Below, piece by piece: positions 2,645 through 42,751 of a DNA stretch of 64,000 nucleotides. The position numbers were made by a program, and so were the translations under genes. Every line of letters starts with the position of its first letter. The first letter of the stretch is position 1. Location of the stretch: contig JAVZCB010000001.1 in the NCBI GenBank assembly GCA_038874595.1, positions 1 to 64,000 on the forward strand. The letters run 5' to 3'. The notes below the pieces were generated by a model. The model had not been told where the DNA came from. It saw only the letters and a list, made by a program, of their open reading frames with translations, and ran no database searches. This DNA comes from Candidatus Micrarchaeia archaeon. Its GTDB lineage: Archaea > Micrarchaeota > Micrarchaeia > CAILAH01.

Positions 2645-3418
2645 TTGAAGCTTGATGATAAGAAACTGGTTATAGCAATATCCATGATGTTTGCATTTGT
2701 ACTTGTAGTGCTCTTTTTCCTTTCACCTCAAAAACAAGATTATCTAAAACCCGGCCCGAACGCCTCTTTTGAGGTGTCATCCCTTTTTGATTCCACTGTA
2801 CAAGATGAAAACGTGACGGCATCATTTCAGGGCCAAACCCCCAATAGCAACGCTACGCCAAACAGCCTATCGGATATGCCAGGAACTGCACAACAAAAAA
2901 ACTGTACACCCTTAGGTGACATCTCAAAGCTAATGCTTATTGGAACTAAATATCTTCTCTATTATGGGGGCAATCCGGTTTATATCCAATCTGCACTTTC
3001 TGGTGTAACAAATGGGAATTACGTAATAAAGGAAAACGTTAAGGCACGGAATGGTGATGAGGTTGTTGAAGCAATCTCTATCAGCGTTTATGATATCAAT
3101 GGGAAATGTATACAAAAGAAGATATCTATTGTTGGGATGGAGCAGTATTTTACTGGTGATAAAGGGACTATACAGTGTGGTGGATATCCTTTATGGGTTG
3201 TGTGTAAGGAGATGATTGATAGCAGCTTTTTTGATAGGAACGATACCGTTGTTATACGTGGTGTGCCATACAAGGTTAAAGTGTTCAAATCCGAAAAAAG
3301 CGAGATATGGGTAGGATACGACCCGCCTATAATGTTCAAGTATTACTTCGATGGTGATACAATGAATAAAAGCTTTTCAGCAGAACTTATCGATATGAAT
3401 TATGGGGGTATAAGATGA
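2645..3418 (+). CDS. Membrane-anchored hypothetical surface protein
   Basis: AGGTGA RBS before TTG, N-terminal TM helix, N/S/T-rich linker; stop overlaps the next start (ATGA). Confidence 0.75.
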   Translation: MKLDDKKLVIAISMMFAFVLVVLFFLSPQKQDYLKPGPNASFEVSSLFDSTVQDENVTASFQGQTPNSNATPNSLSDMPGTAQQKNCTPLGDISKLMLIGTKYLLYYGGNPVYIQSALSGVTNGNYVIKENVKARNGDEVVEAISISVYDINGKCIQKKISIVGMEQYFTGDKGTIQCGGYPLWVVCKEMIDSSFFDRNDTVVIRGVPYKVKVFKSEKSEIWVGYDPPIMFKYYFDGDTMNKSFSAELIDMNYGGIR

Positions 3419-6400
3419 AGAGAGTACTTATTATTTTTGCCTTGTTCCTGGCAGTACTTCTTTCTTCAGGCTGTCTTACATATGATGTCCGGCAGGAGCT
3501 CCCAACCAAGATTGAAGTTACAGAGAAACCAATCACGCCTATTGAATCACCGATTGAATGCAAGACTGCAAGTTGCCTTACTTTCATAAAAGAGGTTGAT
3601 CAGAAGAACCTCAGATGGGAATGCTCACCGCTTTTTAAAGGGGCAAATGATGACCCTGCAGGTACCGTGTATTACCAAGATAAAGGTGATGTGTGCAAAA
3701 CTCTCCCTGCAGCTGATACGCTTTGCCTGCAGTATGACTGTGCTTTCAATAAGGATACCTTTACAGGCTATTATAAGGCATACTACCAATGTTTGGGTGA
3801 AGACGACAGCATTGACAACTGGGGTGTAGGGTATGGGGTTGCATACCCAAACGAAGATGTTTCCTTTTTCAAGATATACACAAAGGGGATAGGCTCTGTA
3901 GGCAGGCTTCCAAGTTATGGCTTTGCGTGTAACGCAATGTCAAGCGAATCCAGAGGGAAGGGTTATAATACATTATGCGATTATCAGGATGGATGTTACA
4001 CGTGTGTTGATTGGGCACTTTTGATAACATACGAGCCGCGCGCCTGCCCGGCAGAGATGCCTATTTTGTACCCCTATAACGCAAAGGGTTTTACTTATAA
4101 TCCAGTGATAAATACAGATGCAAACCCTGGCAGGGAAGTAATACGCGATTTGAGGAAGGATTATACTAAACTTGGCAAGCTCGCTACAGCTTATGCTAAC
4201 AATGTAGCGAAGAATTCTAAGGAAAGTGAGGTGGGTTATGTTAAGGGTTGTGAAGAGATATGCAGCGACCTTGTAAACCATCCAGAGAAGGCAGATGAAT
4301 GTAACAAATGCTCTAAAGAGCATTCTAATGATGAGATTGAAGAGCCCCAGAAAAGCAGTGACAAGCCGGTTGATAGAGGATATACTCTTGCACAATTAAA
4401 TGGTAAATGCAACGGCCTGAACCCGTGCGTGGAGATTGACCGTGCTGGCATAGGCGTTGTCGACAGCTACATTGTAGGCGGTGAAAACACTCAAAATACT
4501 GAGAGCCCGGAATATTCAATTTATACAAGATATGCCAAATGTGACCGTGGTGATTACCCTGGCGAAAAGGGGATGAGGTATTTCATATGCAGCTGCAGGT
4601 GCAAGCAGACAATACGTGCAACGTATGAATGCAGGCGGGCCGGCAATACAACCGCTTACTATTATTCATATTGCAAGGAGTCCAAGGACAAGACGTCACA
4701 GGGCGGTTATGTTTACGAGTTCCATAACTTTAGCGGTGGAGCGTACAAGATAGTGCTTGGAAATGCAACCTCTGAAATCCCAATATTCCTGCTCGGCCAG
4801 GGGCCAACGTTCAAGGATTACGAGCTTGCAAAGAAGTTGTGTGCCCCATCAAATCCTGCGGATGTTACAATAACAGGAGGCAAGCTACCGTTCGTTCCGA
4901 GTAATTTAACTGTGTTTGAAGGTGCACAATTCTGCCTAATTAATAATGGTGCGGGCGCACACAGCGTTTATTCACCTTTAACTATACAGATATATAACCC
5001 ATCAACGAAATCAATAATGAGCTTTACGCAAGATGTGCGAATCGCAAACCTTTCGAGTGGTGCAAGCTCTTGCATTAAGACTGGTGAAGGAACAAATTTC
5101 ACTGTTGGCCAATACACACTTTACTTAGATGATAACAAAATCGCAAAAGCCACTGTTAAAGTTGTAAAGCCAACAACAGGTGCAACGACGGGTGTTGTTA
5201 AGGCAGGTGCGGGAGGCAGGCCAGTATTCCTTTACAATGGTGAGCTTGAGCTTGATGGGGTTTATGCATCCGGCCCGGCTGGTCAAAACACACTGAACAT
5301 AATAGACACCGACGGCAGTGTGCGCAAGGTTAGTGCAGATACAGGTGAGCATACCGATAAGATAGGTAATGTGAAGTTTAGTTATGTTGCGTATACAAGT
5401 GGTGACAAGATAACAATTTCAGGTGAGGGCGAGCCGGTGTTTGCACCACGCGCAATAGTGCTTTCTGCAGGCTCAAAACTATGTGTGGTGAACACAGTTG
5501 AAAGTGGTGCAAAGAACCTGCTCCTCGAGAAAAAGGTAAATTATACACCTGAGACATATGTCCCAATAGCGGCCAAAAGGTCACTTTATGGTCTTGAGTG
5601 CTGTTTTGATATCCCCGACCCTGGTGTGTACCGTGTAAGTGATAGCGATTACCTGAACAGCATGAAAGCGTATGTGGTTGTATTTCCAAGCAAAGTTGCA
5701 CCTTTGATTACAATTAATGATTATGGGTACACACCAATTTCATCCCTTGCCAAGCGTGATGATTATGTATGTATTACTAACCCGATAGGCGCAAATCGCA
5801 CCATATCTTATACCTCTGATAAAGGTGGTAAGGGTACGCTTAAGGTTAGGGCACTTGAAGATTATTGCACCTATGACCTTACAAAAACTGATGCGAACTA
5901 CAATTTCACGGATATGCTTACAGGTGCAAAGTTTTATTTGTCGACCACTTCAGGATCAGTGCTTAACATTGATGTTTATAAGCGCACATTCATCCCAAAG
6001 AATGGGCGGGTTGATAAAGGTGGGCAGGTATGCCTTAATGCAGTAGATTCAAATGTAACTCTGATTTTTGCGCCTGTATCTAAAACATCTGCACTTACAG
6101 GGCAAACGCTTACAGGCCAAACAATCCAGCTTGCACCCGGCCAGAAGCGATGTATTGAAATGAGCACTGAAGGATTATTTACGTTCAGAAATAAAGGCAC
6201 AGGGCTTGACTGTTTTGTTGCGGTCGGTGATAAGGGCGTAGGATACATCGTTAATGGTACTGTAATATATACTCCTTTGGATGTTATGTTTCCAGATTAT
6301 GCGGCTGCATCTACAAACCCATTATATATTGATCTATTTACGAAATATCCCAAGGTTACTTTGCATAATCTAGATGATGTTAGTTATGTGGTTTACAACG

Positions 6401-9400
6401 AGTTGACAATCAGGAACGGGACGGGGTTCAGTACACACCGCCTTGACCTTGTGACCCCGCACACGATAATTTACAATAAAGCGCCATACGATGTTACTAT
6501 AAAGATAATATCACGAGCACTATCTAAAACAGGAAGAACAATAACAATCCCAAAAGGAGGTTACGAGATATACACATATGATTCAGATGCAGGTGATTAT
6601 CGCATCGTGAGTGTTACTAATTTGAATGTTAAGCCCGTTGAAGGTGGTCCGGCAGGGTTAGGCACAAACGTTGATATTAACGGTGAAAAGCTTCTGGACA
6701 GTAGCGGTGTGGTCGTTCCAGCTTCAGGACTAAAAGAAATAACTGTGCGAAGTGTAGGTGGCACGCTCGTAAGCCTGTTCTCTTACACTGGAAGCATAGA
6801 GAATCCATCAACACTCCCTCAAAAGAAAGGTGTTCTGGTAATAAGAGGTAGTGTTGAAGGTGGCGAGTCGGTTGTTGCATCAAAGTTTAATTTTATGAAG
6901 ACGTTGGGGTTTGGTGTGCAAACTTTATCGGGCGTTCCTACAAATGAGGAGTTGATGCAGGCACGCAAGATGCTTGCCATAGATAATTCAATCCCGGTGT
7001 TTTTGTATTCGCGTATTGGAAAGGTTACAGTAGGTCTTGTAGACCCTGCAACAACAGAAACATATCGTATTAATACAGGTGCTCTTGTCAAAGTATCTCT
7101 TGACAGTGATATAAGCAAACAGGAAGTTGTGGTATCAGATAAGAATATTGATCCTTCCAAATATAATGGTGCTTCCAGTCAATGGATTTTTAATATGCCC
7201 ACAAATCCAGTGAATTTTACAATCAAGAAAGGGAGTGTTGAAAAGAAGGTTGAGCTGGTACCACAAACTGCAGTTAAGGAAGTGCGAATGTCTTATACGC
7301 AATATAGGGTAGATACGCACGGTAATGAGAATTATATGTTGCGTGTGCATAACCTTGCAGTTGAGCCGCGTGCAGTCATGCTGCGGCCGAATAAGATAAA
7401 TGAGTACTGCCAGATTGGTGTAGGCAAAATGGAGGAAGACCTTTCAAACATGTGGAGTCCCATAAAGATGCAGGTTTACAAGGTTTACAATGTATCAAAT
7501 AATGATTTGGATGCGCTTGAGAACCACGATTCTTTTGTAAGACAAGGAGTATCAAAAATTACAGATATAACGCTTCTTCCAAATATGGGGTATAAGGATA
7601 TCTCGCTTGAGCTTGGCAGGTCAAAAACTTCTGATAACACTCCTGGCCAGCTTACGCTCAGGGCAAAAGCAGGTAGTACAGCTCCTAATACCCAGGCGTC
7701 TAAGATTTCAACGGAAAATAGGGTTGAGCTTTCACCAGGGTATGTGAGCGGGCTTAAGGATACACAAGCGGTTCGCGTCTATAGGATATTCAGCAGTCAG
7801 GTGCAGGAGGGAGACCCAAAAACTACTATTAATCAAAGGTATCTAGACGTGGGTCTTAGCACTGATGTTTATGGTGGAGAAAAGTACGCGGTTATTGTGC
7901 ACAGGTTTGCTCCACTTACTTACTTGACCGAAAATGAGCTTATCTCTAATATTAATTTGTGGAAAGGAGCAGTGTTTGCCGAGAAAAATTACAACTTACT
8001 TCCACGGGTATGGAAAAACGTATGGGAGGGCGAAAACTTTTACTTGTGGAGTGGTTGCGGCTCAAGCCATCTTATAGTCCCATTCAGTAATGATATATAT
8101 CCAAACGAGTTTGCATATTCTGCTCCAGCCATCTTAGGATTTAAGGGTATGAATAGTTTCCGTGAAGGATATGATAATTACATGCTGCTGAAAACAGCTA
8201 AATATAATTATCCTGTTTTGCCACAGGCAATAGGAAACATCAGGTATAATACTTATACGTTTAAGTTTGTGGATCACTTGGTTCAAGATATAGACTTGAA
8301 TTCAGGAAAATCCTCATCAGAAACGATTGTGCCGACAGCATTTAGAATTACAAACGGTGAGGTACTAACTGAATTCGGTCTTGTGTTTTATGATGAGAAT
8401 AACGGTGATATTCCTTGTGGTAAGATGTACACAGGTTCTAAATTTAGTGAGACAGGAGATTTATTTGGCAGCTATGATGGGGATCCCTTTACAGATAAAA
8501 CACGTTTCAAGTGTGGTACCGGCACTACGGACTATAAAGATGATTATGAAGCAGCAATTAAAGCGCAACTTGATGATAGTCGGTCGTACATAGTGTATAA
8601 TAAATATGGAGGATACTGTTACTTTGGGGATGACCTTAAATTTGAAAATGGTGAATATGTTGAATATGTTGATAATCAAGGATTAGGATTAAAGAACACT
8701 CTATGGTGTCACGTGACAACTAAAGCATATGGAAATAATGGCAGAGCAATTGGTGCTCAAAAAGATGGTAGCTGGAATTTTGCGTATGTGTGGAAAGGCC
8801 TTGGTGATTATAAAGGAGGTTCAGAGAACTACGATAGAGTGATTGAGCTTAAGCTTGATAGTTCGTATGGCAATGAGAGGAGATACTCTTTCATTGCCAA
8901 GCCGTATTATGAGTTTCCAGAACCCGCGTGTGATGTTTCATCTATTCCTACAGGTAATAAATTTGATGGGGGTGTTCCCGAGAATGCATTTGCAGGAGGT
9001 ATTATGTTCCTTTTGAATGATGTATCTCCCGCAAAGAGCAGGTTTGATGAGAACGAAATAGAAAAGGGCACGTCAGAGATGAGTATGGGATATGCGCTAA
9101 CAAACAAGTTTACAATTCCAAACACTCAACTTACTATTGGCCAAAAGGCAGCATGTTTTGGTGAATCCACGTTTGATGGTATCCAGGAGGTTATCGCACC
9201 GCAGGCAGTTAATATATACACACCAGATGCACACGGCGAGTATGCAATTTATGATTCCCCATTCTATCCAAACTTCAAACTGAAAACTAAAGATGGAGAT
9301 ATGTTTTATTATCATCTCTCACCGTTTGCAACTGACAGTGGTAGTGGTAACGTGCGCTCATCACTTGATAAAGGTAAGCTTGGCACTGTTATGTATGATG

Positions 9401-12045
9401 TGCCAAAGACATATGATGGTATACGATATTACCGTGATGCAAGATTTGGCATTAATGATTTCCTTGGGAAAGGCGACTTAATCAAAGACGGTAAAGAGCA
9501 CGTTGCAGATGTATATTTGTACAATCTTACAATTGGCGCGGTTGCTAACGGTGTTGTAACTTCAGTTGATATTGTTGATGTTATGGAAGGTGATTTCCTG
9601 CTTCTTAACAATACAGGTGAAGAGCCGATAGTATGGTATTACGGCATCATTACACCATGTGTGAATAATGATGATATTGAGGATAAAATAAAAGAAAAGA
9701 TGGCCTTCAAATGCGATGCTGGCAAAGAGAAAGATTGCATTACGAACCCGAAGAAATATTCTATCAGTCCGATCGATATGGATAATTATTTAAATGATGT
9801 GGCTGCATCCTCACCAAACTTGGTTTCCCGCGTTGTGATCGCACCTAGGGAGAAGCGTATAGTTGAAACTTCAATGGAAGGTAATGCACCCAACTCAATC
9901 AAATTGGTACTTCCTGCGAATGAGCAGTCTGCAACTTATGTATTTTATAACCCATACTCAGGGAAGAGGATGATGGTGCGTGTTTCGAAACACGTTGAAA
10001 ACATCCTATTACAGATAAACTCGTTCAGCCCGTCGTCAGTTAGCCTGCAGCCGGGCGGCACAGACAGTGAGCTTTGCATTTTGAATAAGGATAAAGTGGA
10101 AAGGAAGATCTTATACGAAACGCTTGATGGAAATATAGAGAAAGAAGTTATCATTAAGCCAGGGAATACTGATTGTAATGTACCTTCGTATTTTAATACA
10201 CATAAAGCTAAAGATGCACTTACAGGTAAATATCTCACAGTTGGCGAAGATAAAATAGGTGGTGATACTGCAATCTCACAGCTAAAGGATATCACAGCTG
10301 CGATTGCACTCTCAAAAGAAGGTGCGGACAACCCGGCGTATAAGTTCCAGGTGTTAAATCCAAAAGCTGCTGCGACACCTGCAATAATAACAACAGAAAT
10401 TATCGATGTTGATGCGATAAACCCAGCTGATGATTCTTCTGGTATTGTAAGGGAAGTTGAAATAATAGAAGGAGTATGTAGGCTGGAGATGATCAGGCAG
10501 GAATCAACAACGTGCGGCCAAACAACATCATCTCAAGCTGAGAACTTGAAGATTGAGATTACTTATGATGATGTTAAGCTGACCGGTTGCTGTTGTAGGC
10601 AGGTTGGCACTTCAACAGAATGCAGGTATGGCCTATCTGAGATTGAGTGCAACACGCTAAGAAAAGCTGGTGGTGGCTGGGGTTACGGCCAGTGCCCGGT
10701 TGGGTGCTGTTGTACTAATGTAAACGGCAATAAGCAATGCGAATATAACGTAGATGAAAATACGTGCAAAAACAGCAAACGCGAATACTCATATTTCTGC
10801 CCAACGAAATCAACTGTATACAAGCAGCGGTGCATTTCAACGTTGCCTTTCTTTATACACATAAAAAGTGGTGAGACAAGCATAGGTTTAGAGCGAATAA
10901 ATAAGATGAAACAGATGATAGATGCGGTTTATGATGGGCTACAGAAGAGCAGTACACTTAAAGATGCTGGTGAGAAGCTTGACCTTATAGGGTATGTTGT
11001 TGTGATTGATGACCCTGGTGTTGGCAAGCGTGGCCAATGCTCATTATCAGGATACATAGATGACTTGCGCAATGTTTCTCAGTATGCTGCCACGAGGTAT
11101 GGCATACCTTCCATGATAATAGGTCTTGGATTGAATAGGAATATCGATGAGAAAAATTCCTGCTGGTCAAACACCGAGCTTGCGGACCAGACGAGAAGAT
11201 TATTTAGTGAGGATATTATGATCATGGTTGGTTCAGGCATAATAGGGATGGGGCAGTACTGCCTCGTTGATACATCTTGCCAACCTTTAACTTCTGGTAA
11301 GGCAGGTGCAGATTATGGGTTGTATTATGACGTTCATACAAGCAGCTCATCACCTTTTGCTTATGGTGTAAACCGGGCAGATGTTATTATTGGAGGTGTA
11401 ACATCTTTCAGTGATTACCTGAGGTCCTTGCCTTCTAGTGCATTTGGGAGTATCACACCAACGTCCACTTTAGAAAGTATTTCCATGCAGCCATCAATAA
11501 CATTACCTACCCGTGCAGAAATTCGCTACAACGTTATGAGAAAGGTTAATGCCAAGACTGGTAATATCACTTATGTTAATGTGAAACCTACTTATGGTAG
11601 CGATTTCACGCTTGGTACACAACCATCATTGCAAGGTAATATCCTTGATAGTAGCACTTTAGGCAATGTACCTACATTGGGTGATCAGGTGGGTGGTTTG
11701 AGTGGAGGTGCGAACTTACAGTACACAAACCTGGTTATTGATTACATCAACTATCTTTCGCAATCTGGTGTTGTTATAAGTGGTCTTAGTGAGGGAAGCA
11801 TATCACTTCCGGCCCTAATAGACCAATTTAATAACATAAATCTGCCTTCTAATGTGCTTTCAGGCACTTACAGGAAAGACCCATATGCGCGAGTATGGTT
11901 TGACCAGTGTGGTAAATATTACTATGAAGGTGAGGGGCAGACTTTAATAATATTCTCAGAGACGGATATACCGAGAGGGCAGCAGGGTAACCAGTGTGAC
12001 CCGTCAAGAATGATGGAGCTTTACAAGAAATACAAATGTGATTAA
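3415..12045 (+). CDS. Giant (2876 aa) predicted lipoprotein / surface protein with cupredoxin-like repeats and Cys-rich modules
   Basis: 8.6-kb uninterrupted ORF; lipobox-like LLSSGC; repeated F/YxP-x-G-x-C-x-N...C...G-x-Y modules. Confidence 0.8.
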   Translation: MKRVLIIFALFLAVLLSSGCLTYDVRQELPTKIEVTEKPITPIESPIECKTASCLTFIKEVDQKNLRWECSPLFKGANDDPAGTVYYQDKGDVCKTLPAADTLCLQYDCAFNKDTFTGYYKAYYQCLGEDDSIDNWGVGYGVAYPNEDVSFFKIYTKGIGSVGRLPSYGFACNAMSSESRGKGYNTLCDYQDGCYTCVDWALLITYEPRACPAEMPILYPYNAKGFTYNPVINTDANPGREVIRDLRKDYTKLGKLATAYANNVAKNSKESEVGYVKGCEEICSDLVNHPEKADECNKCSKEHSNDEIEEPQKSSDKPVDRGYTLAQLNGKCNGLNPCVEIDRAGIGVVDSYIVGGENTQNTESPEYSIYTRYAKCDRGDYPGEKGMRYFICSCRCKQTIRATYECRRAGNTTAYYYSYCKESKDKTSQGGYVYEFHNFSGGAYKIVLGNATSEIPIFLLGQGPTFKDYELAKKLCAPSNPADVTITGGKLPFVPSNLTVFEGAQFCLINNGAGAHSVYSPLTIQIYNPSTKSIMSFTQDVRIANLSSGASSCIKTGEGTNFTVGQYTLYLDDNKIAKATVKVVKPTTGATTGVVKAGAGGRPVFLYNGELELDGVYASGPAGQNTLNIIDTDGSVRKVSADTGEHTDKIGNVKFSYVAYTSGDKITISGEGEPVFAPRAIVLSAGSKLCVVNTVESGAKNLLLEKKVNYTPETYVPIAAKRSLYGLECCFDIPDPGVYRVSDSDYLNSMKAYVVVFPSKVAPLITINDYGYTPISSLAKRDDYVCITNPIGANRTISYTSDKGGKGTLKVRALEDYCTYDLTKTDANYNFTDMLTGAKFYLSTTSGSVLNIDVYKRTFIPKNGRVDKGGQVCLNAVDSNVTLIFAPVSKTSALTGQTLTGQTIQLAPGQKRCIEMSTEGLFTFRNKGTGLDCFVAVGDKGVGYIVNGTVIYTPLDVMFPDYAAASTNPLYIDLFTKYPKVTLHNLDDVSYVVYNELTIRNGTGFSTHRLDLVTPHTIIYNKAPYDVTIKIISRALSKTGRTITIPKGGYEIYTYDSDAGDYRIVSVTNLNVKPVEGGPAGLGTNVDINGEKLLDSSGVVVPASGLKEITVRSVGGTLVSLFSYTGSIENPSTLPQKKGVLVIRGSVEGGESVVASKFNFMKTLGFGVQTLSGVPTNEELMQARKMLAIDNSIPVFLYSRIGKVTVGLVDPATTETYRINTGALVKVSLDSDISKQEVVVSDKNIDPSKYNGASSQWIFNMPTNPVNFTIKKGSVEKKVELVPQTAVKEVRMSYTQYRVDTHGNENYMLRVHNLAVEPRAVMLRPNKINEYCQIGVGKMEEDLSNMWSPIKMQVYKVYNVSNNDLDALENHDSFVRQGVSKITDITLLPNMGYKDISLELGRSKTSDNTPGQLTLRAKAGSTAPNTQASKISTENRVELSPGYVSGLKDTQAVRVYRIFSSQVQEGDPKTTINQRYLDVGLSTDVYGGEKYAVIVHRFAPLTYLTENELISNINLWKGAVFAEKNYNLLPRVWKNVWEGENFYLWSGCGSSHLIVPFSNDIYPNEFAYSAPAILGFKGMNSFREGYDNYMLLKTAKYNYPVLPQAIGNIRYNTYTFKFVDHLVQDIDLNSGKSSSETIVPTAFRITNGEVLTEFGLVFYDENNGDIPCGKMYTGSKFSETGDLFGSYDGDPFTDKTRFKCGTGTTDYKDDYEAAIKAQLDDSRSYIVYNKYGGYCYFGDDLKFENGEYVEYVDNQGLGLKNTLWCHVTTKAYGNNGRAIGAQKDGSWNFAYVWKGLGDYKGGSENYDRVIELKLDSSYGNERRYSFIAKPYYEFPEPACDVSSIPTGNKFDGGVPENAFAGGIMFLLNDVSPAKSRFDENEIEKGTSEMSMGYALTNKFTIPNTQLTIGQKAACFGESTFDGIQEVIAPQAVNIYTPDAHGEYAIYDSPFYPNFKLKTKDGDMFYYHLSPFATDSGSGNVRSSLDKGKLGTVMYDVPKTYDGIRYYRDARFGINDFLGKGDLIKDGKEHVADVYLYNLTIGAVANGVVTSVDIVDVMEGDFLLLNNTGEEPIVWYYGIITPCVNNDDIEDKIKEKMAFKCDAGKEKDCITNPKKYSISPIDMDNYLNDVAASSPNLVSRVVIAPREKRIVETSMEGNAPNSIKLVLPANEQSATYVFYNPYSGKRMMVRVSKHVENILLQINSFSPSSVSLQPGGTDSELCILNKDKVERKILYETLDGNIEKEVIIKPGNTDCNVPSYFNTHKAKDALTGKYLTVGEDKIGGDTAISQLKDITAAIALSKEGADNPAYKFQVLNPKAAATPAIITTEIIDVDAINPADDSSGIVREVEIIEGVCRLEMIRQESTTCGQTTSSQAENLKIEITYDDVKLTGCCCRQVGTSTECRYGLSEIECNTLRKAGGGWGYGQCPVGCCCTNVNGNKQCEYNVDENTCKNSKREYSYFCPTKSTVYKQRCISTLPFFIHIKSGETSIGLERINKMKQMIDAVYDGLQKSSTLKDAGEKLDLIGYVVVIDDPGVGKRGQCSLSGYIDDLRNVSQYAATRYGIPSMIIGLGLNRNIDEKNSCWSNTELADQTRRLFSEDIMIMVGSGIIGMGQYCLVDTSCQPLTSGKAGADYGLYYDVHTSSSSPFAYGVNRADVIIGGVTSFSDYLRSLPSSAFGSITPTSTLESISMQPSITLPTRAEIRYNVMRKVNAKTGNITYVNVKPTYGSDFTLGTQPSLQGNILDSSTLGNVPTLGDQVGGLSGGANLQYTNLVIDYINYLSQSGVVISGLSEGSISLPALIDQFNNINLPSNVLSGTYRKDPYARVWFDQCGKYYYEGEGQTLIIFSETDIPRGQQGNQCDPSRMMELYKKYKCD

Positions 12046-24516: not shown

Positions 24517-24732
24517 TTGCTAGGGGCAGATTCCTCCCCTAGTACCCCTGATAGTTTTGTGTGCAAGCCACAAAACGACTATTTGCTTATGCGTGTTTGC
24601 TAGGGGCAGATTCCTCCCCTAGTACCCCTGATAGTTTTGTGTGCAAGCCACAAAACGACTATTTGCTTATGCGTGTTTGCTAGGGGCAGATTCCTCCCCT
24701 AGTACCCCTGATAGTTTTGTGTGCAAGCCACA
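24517..24732. repeat. Perfect 80-bp tandem repeat, about 2.7 copies, two hairpins per unit
   Basis: Identical units at 24521, 24601, 24681; CTAGGGG/CCCCTAG and GTTTTGTG/CACAAAAC inverted repeats. Confidence 0.95.
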
Positions 24733-42070: not shown

Positions 42071-42421
42071 GGGCCAGTAGCTCAGCCTGGTCAGAGCGGC
42101 GGTCTTATATGGCTCCGTCTGATAAAGTATGTAAGACTCAGGCTAAGAGAGCCGTAGGTCGGGAGTTCAAAGCACTGATGGAAGGGGGCACATCCCCCTC
42201 GCACATTCGCACTTGCGAATGGCGCATCGTTTGGCTTTGCCAAACGATTGTCCCTCGTGTGGTCTACACCTAACCCCCTGAGATATGGAGGAGGTGTAGC
42301 ACTGATGGAAGGGGCACATCCCCCTTCTCAACCCACCTATCCCCTATGAGGGTTTGGGTGTGCGAAAGAAGTGGATTTGGGTTCCTCTCCACACTTTAGT
42401 TTGAAAATCTCCCCTGGCCCA
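42071..42421 (+). tRNA. tRNA-Ile(UAU) with two introns (37/38: 42110-42149; 59/60: 42172-42407, 236 nt)
   Basis: GGGCCAG/CUGGCCC-A acceptor, GGGAG/CUCCC T-stem, BHB helices CUUA/UAAG and UUCA/UGAA; TATATAA upstream. Confidence 0.85.
42172..42325 (+). repeat. ~27-bp palindromic direct repeat inside the tRNA-Ile intron
   Basis: GCACTGATGGAAGGGG(G)CACATCCCCCT at 42172 and 42299. Confidence 0.9.
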
Positions 42422-42430
42422 CTTAGAAAA

Positions 42431-42751
42431 ATGACAAGAAGAAGGCTAAGCGCGAAGAAGAAAGGCGTCGCATCAGACATCGCTCGCGAGAGGGTTATTA
42501 CCCTCCTGCAACTTGCCAAGAAGATGCTGGGGCAAGGGAGGGATGATGTCGCGAAACGCTACTGCTCTCTTGCGCGAAAAATCCAGCTCAGGTACAGGGT
42601 CAGGCTGCCCCGCAAGGGTCGGCTTGAATACTGTAAGAAATGCTTTATTCCCTGGGTTCCTGGAAAGAGCGTACGCGTCAGGCTCGATAGCAATCGGCGT
42701 TGCGTTGAGTATGCATGTGTATGCGGCCATAAGAAAAGGATAGTTTATTAG
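42431..42751 (+). CDS. rnp4: RNase P protein Rpp21
   Basis: IARERV..L, RY..LARKI, CKKC...CVCG zinc ribbon. Confidence 0.9.
   Translation: MTRRRLSAKKKGVASDIARERVITLLQLAKKMLGQGRDDVAKRYCSLARKIQLRYRVRLPRKGRLEYCKKCFIPWVPGKSVRVRLDSNRRCVEYACVCGHKKRIVY

Follow-up and report, generated by a model that had tools for sequence, protein, structure and literature searches.

The closest described counterparts of the tRNA insert analysed here are the 59/60 BHB introns of ARMAN-2 (Micrarchaeum), which it resembles in position, BHB, enzyme type and lineage, and epsilon2-type EndA has been reported to cut introns at this site (PMC3239211, PMC5829648). Published archaeal tRNA introns measure 11–129 nt, with medians of 12–25 nt (PMC4090602), those of Asgard archaea have a median of 22–23 nt, and a 2026 census of the latter found no general route by which introns arrive (10.64898/2026.10.13.758758). 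Compared with the introns of ARMAN-2 and the published archaeal range, that of tRNA-Ile(UAU) is 236 nt long and consists of dispersed repeats. Transposed introns of near-identical sequence occur in different tRNAs and at different positions in Thermoproteales (Fujishima et al. 2010, in PMC4090602), and the 120 nt that are identical between the Ile 59/60 and Arg 37/38 introns recall them; in the account given in PMC4090602, however, the shared units are whole short introns, whereas here parts are shared and also stand inverted, nested, in tandem and outside introns. The box C/D introns of tRNA-Trp are likewise longer than usual and internally structured, but they are conserved and come with boxes and targets (PMC4090602), and the 236-nt intron has neither. 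Our literature search, which most subscription journals lay beyond, found no paper describing tRNA introns built from repeats. By its predicted junctions the insert belongs to the archaeal BHB introns, and we read it as a spliceable intron whose interior is probably (about 0.78) near-neutral cargo of small dispersed DNA repeats sheltered by splicing.

The window, the whole stretch of 64,000 nt that was analysed, corresponds to positions 1–64000 of contig 1 of a 918-kb genome (G000; completeness 93.5%), and the ribosomal protein S19e encoded in it points to a Micrarchaeota affinity. Gene order at the locus (uracil-DNA glycosylase, tRNA-Ile(UAU), Rpp21, S19e) is the same in relatives. Neither ARAGORN nor Rfam detects the tRNA gene, which is laid out as follows.

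42071–42421, plus strand: tRNA-Ile(UAU) gene with two introns, CCA not encoded (assigned from the cloverleaf after splicing, conservation and the lack of TiaS)
42071–42109, plus strand: exon 1, tRNA positions 1–37
42110–42149, plus strand: canonical 37/38 BHB intron of 40 nt, homologous across Micrarchaeia
42150–42171, plus strand: exon 2, positions 38–59, with one strand of the BHB central helix at 42166–42169
42172–42407, plus strand: 59/60 BHB intron of 236 nt, a repeat mosaic
42408–42421, plus strand: exon 3, positions 60–73
42431–42751, plus strand: Rpp21 gene (RNase P subunit), 10 nt 3′ of the tRNA, given as context

Removal of both introns (40 nt and 236 nt) yields a perfect cloverleaf with the anticodon UAU. 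Exon 2 ends in A59 (42171) and exon 3 begins with U60 (42408), and the bounds that the first-pass annotation had given for a 236-nt insert in the T-loop of tRNA-Ile, 42172–42407, are exact. The whole gene is letter-identical in GCA_038891275.1 and in Logan SRR27730023, whose loci around the gene are 99.75% identical to the window, which indicates that both are strains separate from that of the window. A metagenome scan for the exon–intron junction returned a single match, which was unrelated and due to chance. At the level of sequence, the insert is confirmed as a real BHB intron at 59/60 of tRNA-Ile(UAU).

The helix proposed to resemble that of sibling 59/60 introns was recovered in the full pre-tRNA: 42166–42169 pairs with 42402–42405 (P = 0.93 at 37 °C and 0.65 at 75 °C) through 4/4 Watson-Crick pairs, with 3-nt bulges at both junctions. 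Together with the T stem (P = 0.99 in the whole precursor) this central helix dominates the fold, and the intron-side helix is weak (P = 0.2), so that the BHB would have a relaxed, hBH-like form. Across the genome, a perfect 4-bp central helix was found in 21 of 22 59/60 (T-loop) introns as against 2.4% of internal 4-mers, and compensatory changes of the helix were identified in the 59/60 introns of tRNA-His and tRNA-Asp; selection acts on the intron junctions, and the ends are the only part under constraint. EndA is represented by two pieces matching residues 151–387 of the ARMAN-2 epsilon2 EndA 4FZ2 (E 2e-43 and 1e-40), which flank a 10-N scaffold gap (L032:340–349, on G000:C7), with the N-terminal unit beyond the contig. 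An apparent frameshift in the gene is this gap, and a frameshifted EndA was rejected. The encoded enzyme is of the epsilon2 type and is predicted to be able to cut non-canonical sites. An epsilon2-type EndA reads the junction BHB alone, the length and content of an intron being invisible to it, and an excised BHB intron should be circularised by ligation and then discarded. We infer that the 236-nt intron would be spliced regardless of its content. In two other introns of the genome the nominal junctions pair poorly: the central helix has 0/4 pairs in the 37/38 intron of tRNA-Val(CAC) (G000:C1:143528–143913) and 2/4 in that of tRNA-Arg(GCG) (C3:129002–129206), and both may rely on other pairings, made with internal repeats.

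The host tRNA is itself unusual, as tRNA-Ile(UAU) has been found in only 2 of 167 archaeal genomes (PMC6000648), and it is conserved across the Micrarchaeia sampled. The only CAU tRNAs found in the genome are the initiator and the elongator, and tRNA-Ile(UAU) is probably the sole decoder of AUA. None of the nine genomes of the order has TiaS, and AUA outnumbers the other Ile codons (8,527 occurrences in long ORFs), so the cell almost certainly depends on this tRNA. The suggestion that the gene might be a pseudogene beside another intact AUA decoder does not apply, given no TiaS and only two CAU tRNAs. The lack of TiaS in nine of nine genomes, with tRNA-Ile(UAU) in many Micrarchaeia, amounts to a lineage-wide alternative reading of AUA, previously known from only two archaea (PMC6000648).

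We parsed 54 introns in 43 tRNA genes of the genome, two tRNA-Tyr introns being read by eye, and obtained a median length of 48 nt. Ten introns exceed the published maximum of 129 nt, and the longest, that of tRNA-Val(CAC), reaches 386 nt; the exceptional length that the first-pass annotation saw in the tRNA-Ile insert is contradicted within its own genome. At 236 nt the intron nearly doubles the published length range; it is one good example of about ten in the genome and not a one-off. Compared across MAGs for length and modules, the orthologous 59/60 intron ranges from 0 to 247 nt with a variable interior: among relatives its length is 0, 31, 66, 116, 139 or 153 nt and its content is for the most part unrelated, and within one sister species its length is 70, 98, 245 or 247 nt, and there flanks 97–99.8% identical enclose an interior that has been replaced wholesale. 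Since length and content vary both between and within species, the interior of the 236-nt intron is not a conserved RNA. The 37/38 intron of the same gene has recognisable homologues throughout the relatives. Additional insertions were noted elsewhere in tRNA genes, namely T-stem introns in tRNA-Ile(UAU) of one relative (G004) and tRNA-Arg(UCU) of another (G003), giving three introns per gene, and D-loop insertions in tRNA-Leu(UAG) (C3:148867–148950) and tRNA-Ser(CGA) (C3:108160–108239).

Comparison of the intron with the rest of the genome resolved it into the following blocks.

42172–42291, plus strand: 120-nt block that recurs at 100% identity within the 37/38 intron of tRNA-Arg(GCG) (G000:C3:129011–129130, minus strand)
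42173–42199, plus strand: left part of the first copy of head H1, with the fixed end and a G/C hairpin (duplex part of a predicted minus-strand triplex)
42200–42250, plus strand: module X, a 51-nt double hairpin inserted in H1
42251–42278, plus strand: right part of head H1, with the duplex remainder, a linker and the third-strand segment (42264–42278)
42279–42299, plus strand: loop and fold-back copy pairing with 42264–42271 (hairpin B)
42300–42327, plus strand: second H1 left part, terminating in an 8-nt microhomology (42320–42327)
42320–42407, plus strand: 88-nt block of subfamily H2, including the 3′ BHB strand (42402–42405)

Inverted copies of 42172–42291 are present in the introns of tRNA-Cys (85% identity) and tRNA-Tyr (77%). 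The H2 block matches the terminal part of the 59/60 intron of tRNA-Ile(GAU) at 78 of 91 aligned columns (86%) and is also found in tRNA-Leu(UAG), and it is in the C-rich microhomology at 42320–42327 that the Arg-type and Ile(GAU)-type blocks meet. H1 is split cleanly by X, and once X is taken out H1 does not differ from the first unit of the Arg(GCG) intron. X itself is dispersed over about 40 places in G000 and its congener G001, also outside H1 and inside other hairpins. A reading of X as a nested BHB intron was rejected on inspection, as no central helix was seen at its ends. Some X modules lie inside long ORFs (G001:C13:7768–7844, C37:25129–25176 and C41:17346–17393), perhaps as in-frame insertions or perhaps because the ORFs are shadow ORFs. 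ARAGORN wrongly calls a ‘tRNA-Cys’ at C3:128967; G37 and A20 identify the gene as tRNA-Arg(GCG), and tRNA-Cys is in fact encoded on C2.

Several structural features listed by the first-pass annotation were borne out by this dissection. The roughly seven hairpins are all present in the MFE fold of the insert (z = −4.8 against 200 shuffles) and also form when the entire precursor is folded, the palindromic unit of about 27 nt said to recur at 42172 and 42299 is a 28-nt repeat of 96% identity, and the 11-nt repeat CACCTAWCCCC is present at both 42267 and 42334. A long-range UCGCACA/UGUGCGA stem (42199–42205/42359–42365) was rejected, with a pairing probability of only 0.01–0.05. As the 11-nt repeats belong to two repeat subfamilies, they point to recombination between families more than to internal duplication. 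The proposed growth of the intron by duplication or accretion of hairpin modules is supported and can be specified: modules from other loci were joined at microhomology, and one was nested in another. In G001 the orthologous intron begins with an H2-type head. On the simplest history, an intron of the Ile(GAU) type acquired an Arg(GCG)-type block on its 5′ side; the order of assembly is uncertain because an H1+X intron occupies the same tRNA-Ile(UAU) site in a more distant species (L165). Because donors are identifiable, recent (120 nt identical in two tRNAs) and polymorphic within species, intron gain and growth can be traced and tested here. The failure of ARAGORN and Rfam to detect such genes implies that the tRNA sets of DPANN are under-annotated.

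Heads of this repeat family occur in both orientations in introns, leaders, trailers and gene ends, and have a fixed and a variable end. When the C-rich strand is read as the sense strand, they begin 0–2 nt from the 5′ splice site in a dozen introns or directly follow a tRNA 3′ end; in the opposite orientation they end at position 38, or at G1 in leaders (Cys, Phe, two Ser, Leu). Heads of G001 are also situated at stop codons and adjoining other genes. H1 insertions at tRNA 3′ ends are bordered by direct repeats of 9–21 bp, and only 2 of 27 H1 matches lie within long ORFs, though these make up 87% of the DNA. Tandem arrays of repeat units were found in Val, Leu, Ile(GAU) and His as well as in leaders. 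The family is matched in seven of nine genomes of the order, an exact H1 18-mer was found in two other species among 185,579 and in none of the viral contigs searched, and on these counts the family is confined to this lineage. REP/BIME and IS200/IS605-derived elements consist of small palindromic modules that lie at gene ends in either orientation and build up mosaics and tandem arrays. The present repeats resemble them in all these respects; they differ in that no Y1/RAYT is found in the nine genomes and in that variable repeats of 9–21 bp misfit Y1 insertion.

Other repeated structures were noted near tRNA genes. A perfect 80-bp tandem repeat of 2.7 copies abuts G1 of tRNA-Leu(CAA) in the window (24517–24732), with a hairpin resembling an inverted head at the end of each unit. 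Units of 55–111 bp downstream of tRNA genes repeat the tRNA 3′ ends (G000:C2:669–815, C3:54785–54987, C4:79070–79181 and C6:28409–28680), and some of these units enclose H1 heads. The 59/60 introns of tRNA-Gly(UCC) and tRNA-Gly(CCC) are 98% identical (G000:C1:134489–134584 and C6:35081–35178), and part of this intron stands alone at C2:26557–26593.

The arrangement of the heads corresponds to a predicted intrastrand triplex. A heuristic script written for this analysis identified nine class I purine-motif matches in G000, eight of them at tRNA loci, and 17 in G001, compared with none in 11 shuffles; the same scan gave no class II or IV triplexes, all purine-motif matches being class I. In 45 of 81 triads T faces A, which fits the G-rich strand only. 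Among 18 heads chosen by homology, each scored higher with its own third strand than crosswise (8.17 versus 6.75, p about 5e-5), a p-value overstated by the shared descent of the copies, and with the score lowered by a mis-parsed row for the tRNA-Ile(UAU) locus; spacer lengths covary in the same heads (rho 0.73). A G-to-A change in the duplex is mirrored by the third strand in two subfamilies, and the heads exhibit three-strand covariation. Both heads of the 236-nt intron, in their present form, fail the scan, the first being split by X and the second a hybrid. The G-rich strand is the template strand in tRNA-Ile(UAU). RNA reportedly does not adopt purine-motif triplexes, and DNA polymerase is blocked in vitro by PIT elements (PMC4666352). 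This suggests that the conserved structure of the head is of a DNA type, a triplex predicted for the G-rich sequence of the non-transcribed strand, and with its three-strand covariation it would suggest a biological role for intrastrand DNA triplexes. The BoxC/PIT/TMECO repeats of E. coli are intergenic and G/C-rich, combine a hairpin with a mirror third strand and have no linked transposase; the heads resemble them in purine-motif potential (at the level of the family), in the lack of strand bias and in a tie to local variability (PMC4666352). TMECO is, however, of class II with its own consensus (PMC4666352), and the heads are of class I and unrelated in sequence. Also unlike TMECO, the heads are concentrated at tRNA processing sites and possess fixed ends and direct repeats, and we do not consider them members of the BoxC/PIT repeats.

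We propose the following origin for the intron. EndA would cut by the BHB alone, and intron content would be tolerated. A head would fold on the G-rich single DNA strand into a hairpin with an antiparallel third strand (class I purine-motif triplex) and would use its fixed end to insert at the boundaries of tRNA processing, from which it is cut away as the tRNA matures. Shared C-run microhomologies would then allow copies to recombine, and folded blocks would duplicate by slippage, as the tandem arrays imply; at tRNA-Ile(UAU) a 3′ block of the Ile(GAU) type would have received an Arg(GCG)-type block ahead of it. For the arrival step, movement of a non-autonomous element in trans by a nuclease or transposase has somewhat less than an even chance, polymerase stalling and template switching with host enzymes only is a substantial though lesser possibility, and an RNA intermediate is rather improbable. 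A more specific form, in which the heads are non-autonomous mobile DNA with the triple helix as signal, inserted enzymatically by the fixed end at tRNA processing junctions and thereby creating and enlarging introns, is offered tentatively and is itself doubtful. Y1 transposases (RAYT/TnpA) were found in none of the nine genomes of the order (61–93% complete), and a tyrosine integrase is absent from G000. Other mobiliser candidates comprise an RT in one of nine genomes (DGR), TnpB in two and IS110 in two; no repeat modules lie beside the RT, TnpB or IS110 genes, and no candidate mobiliser tracks the repeats.

Transposition at the RNA level is an unlikely alternative, in which EndA and RtcB would re-ligate excised introns into pre-tRNAs, RT would copy them back and rolling-circle copying would yield the tandem units. 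It would explain why heads adjoin RNA processing sites almost exactly and why one intron start is common to 59/60 and 37/38 of different tRNAs, and a fixed and a variable end with variable direct repeats resemble target-primed reverse transcription, but it is difficult to reconcile with inverted copies in Cys, Tyr and leaders, with copies at stop codons, with repeat units that are parts of introns and not whole circles, and with the lack of an RT in G000, the sole RT in the order being the DGR enzyme.

Very unlikely, in our view, is the notion that the tRNA carries a functional structured RNA, the excised 236-nt circle, which would act as guide, scaffold or regulator. The strong fold (z = −4.8), an invariant sequence in three assemblies with flanks that differ by 0.25%, box C/D-like words inside and the precedent of the C/D guide in tRNA-Trp introns (PMC4090602) would be expected of such an RNA. 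Its interior is unconserved between or within species, however, and a 70-nt allele in the sister species already suggests that strains may lack the interior without cost; modules occur antisense and outside tRNAs, box-like words are lost in family variants, the genome holds no guide target, and the sense circle has no ORF over 32 codons. Rfam covariance models, group I and II included, gave no match to the intron at E up to 5. The structured circular RNA envisaged by the first-pass annotation is not supported, as the interior is swapped between strains and the conserved structure of the repeats is of a type reportedly not adopted by RNA. A C/D guide intron was rejected on the absence of an Rfam match, of any 12-nt target in the genome and of conserved boxes, and a coding circle on the length of its ORFs.

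That short repeats were misassembled, or that the tRNA gene is dead, is barely credible. An exact repeat of 120 nt might misguide an assembler working from short reads, and relatives show contig breaks at the locus; misassembly is nevertheless made unlikely by an identical gene in two independent assemblies with 99.75% identical loci and by conserved gene order, and death of the gene by a BHB and exons that are perfect, the lack of TiaS, the presence of only two CAU tRNAs and 8,527 AUA codons in long ORFs.

Three further loci were noted. At tRNA-Ala(UGC) (G000:C3:80600–80856, minus strand) a 5′ half and the start of a repeat-filled intron are followed by 23S rRNA sequence; a matching 3′ half was not found in the assembly, consistent with collapse, deletion or a split gene. 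The DGR of G001 (L213:1255–2535, on C26) comprises an RT, a 53-nt template/variable repeat pair and a 268-aa target gene. The window also carries, at 3415–12045, a 2,876-aa ORF followed by ORFs of 598 aa and 1,214 aa.
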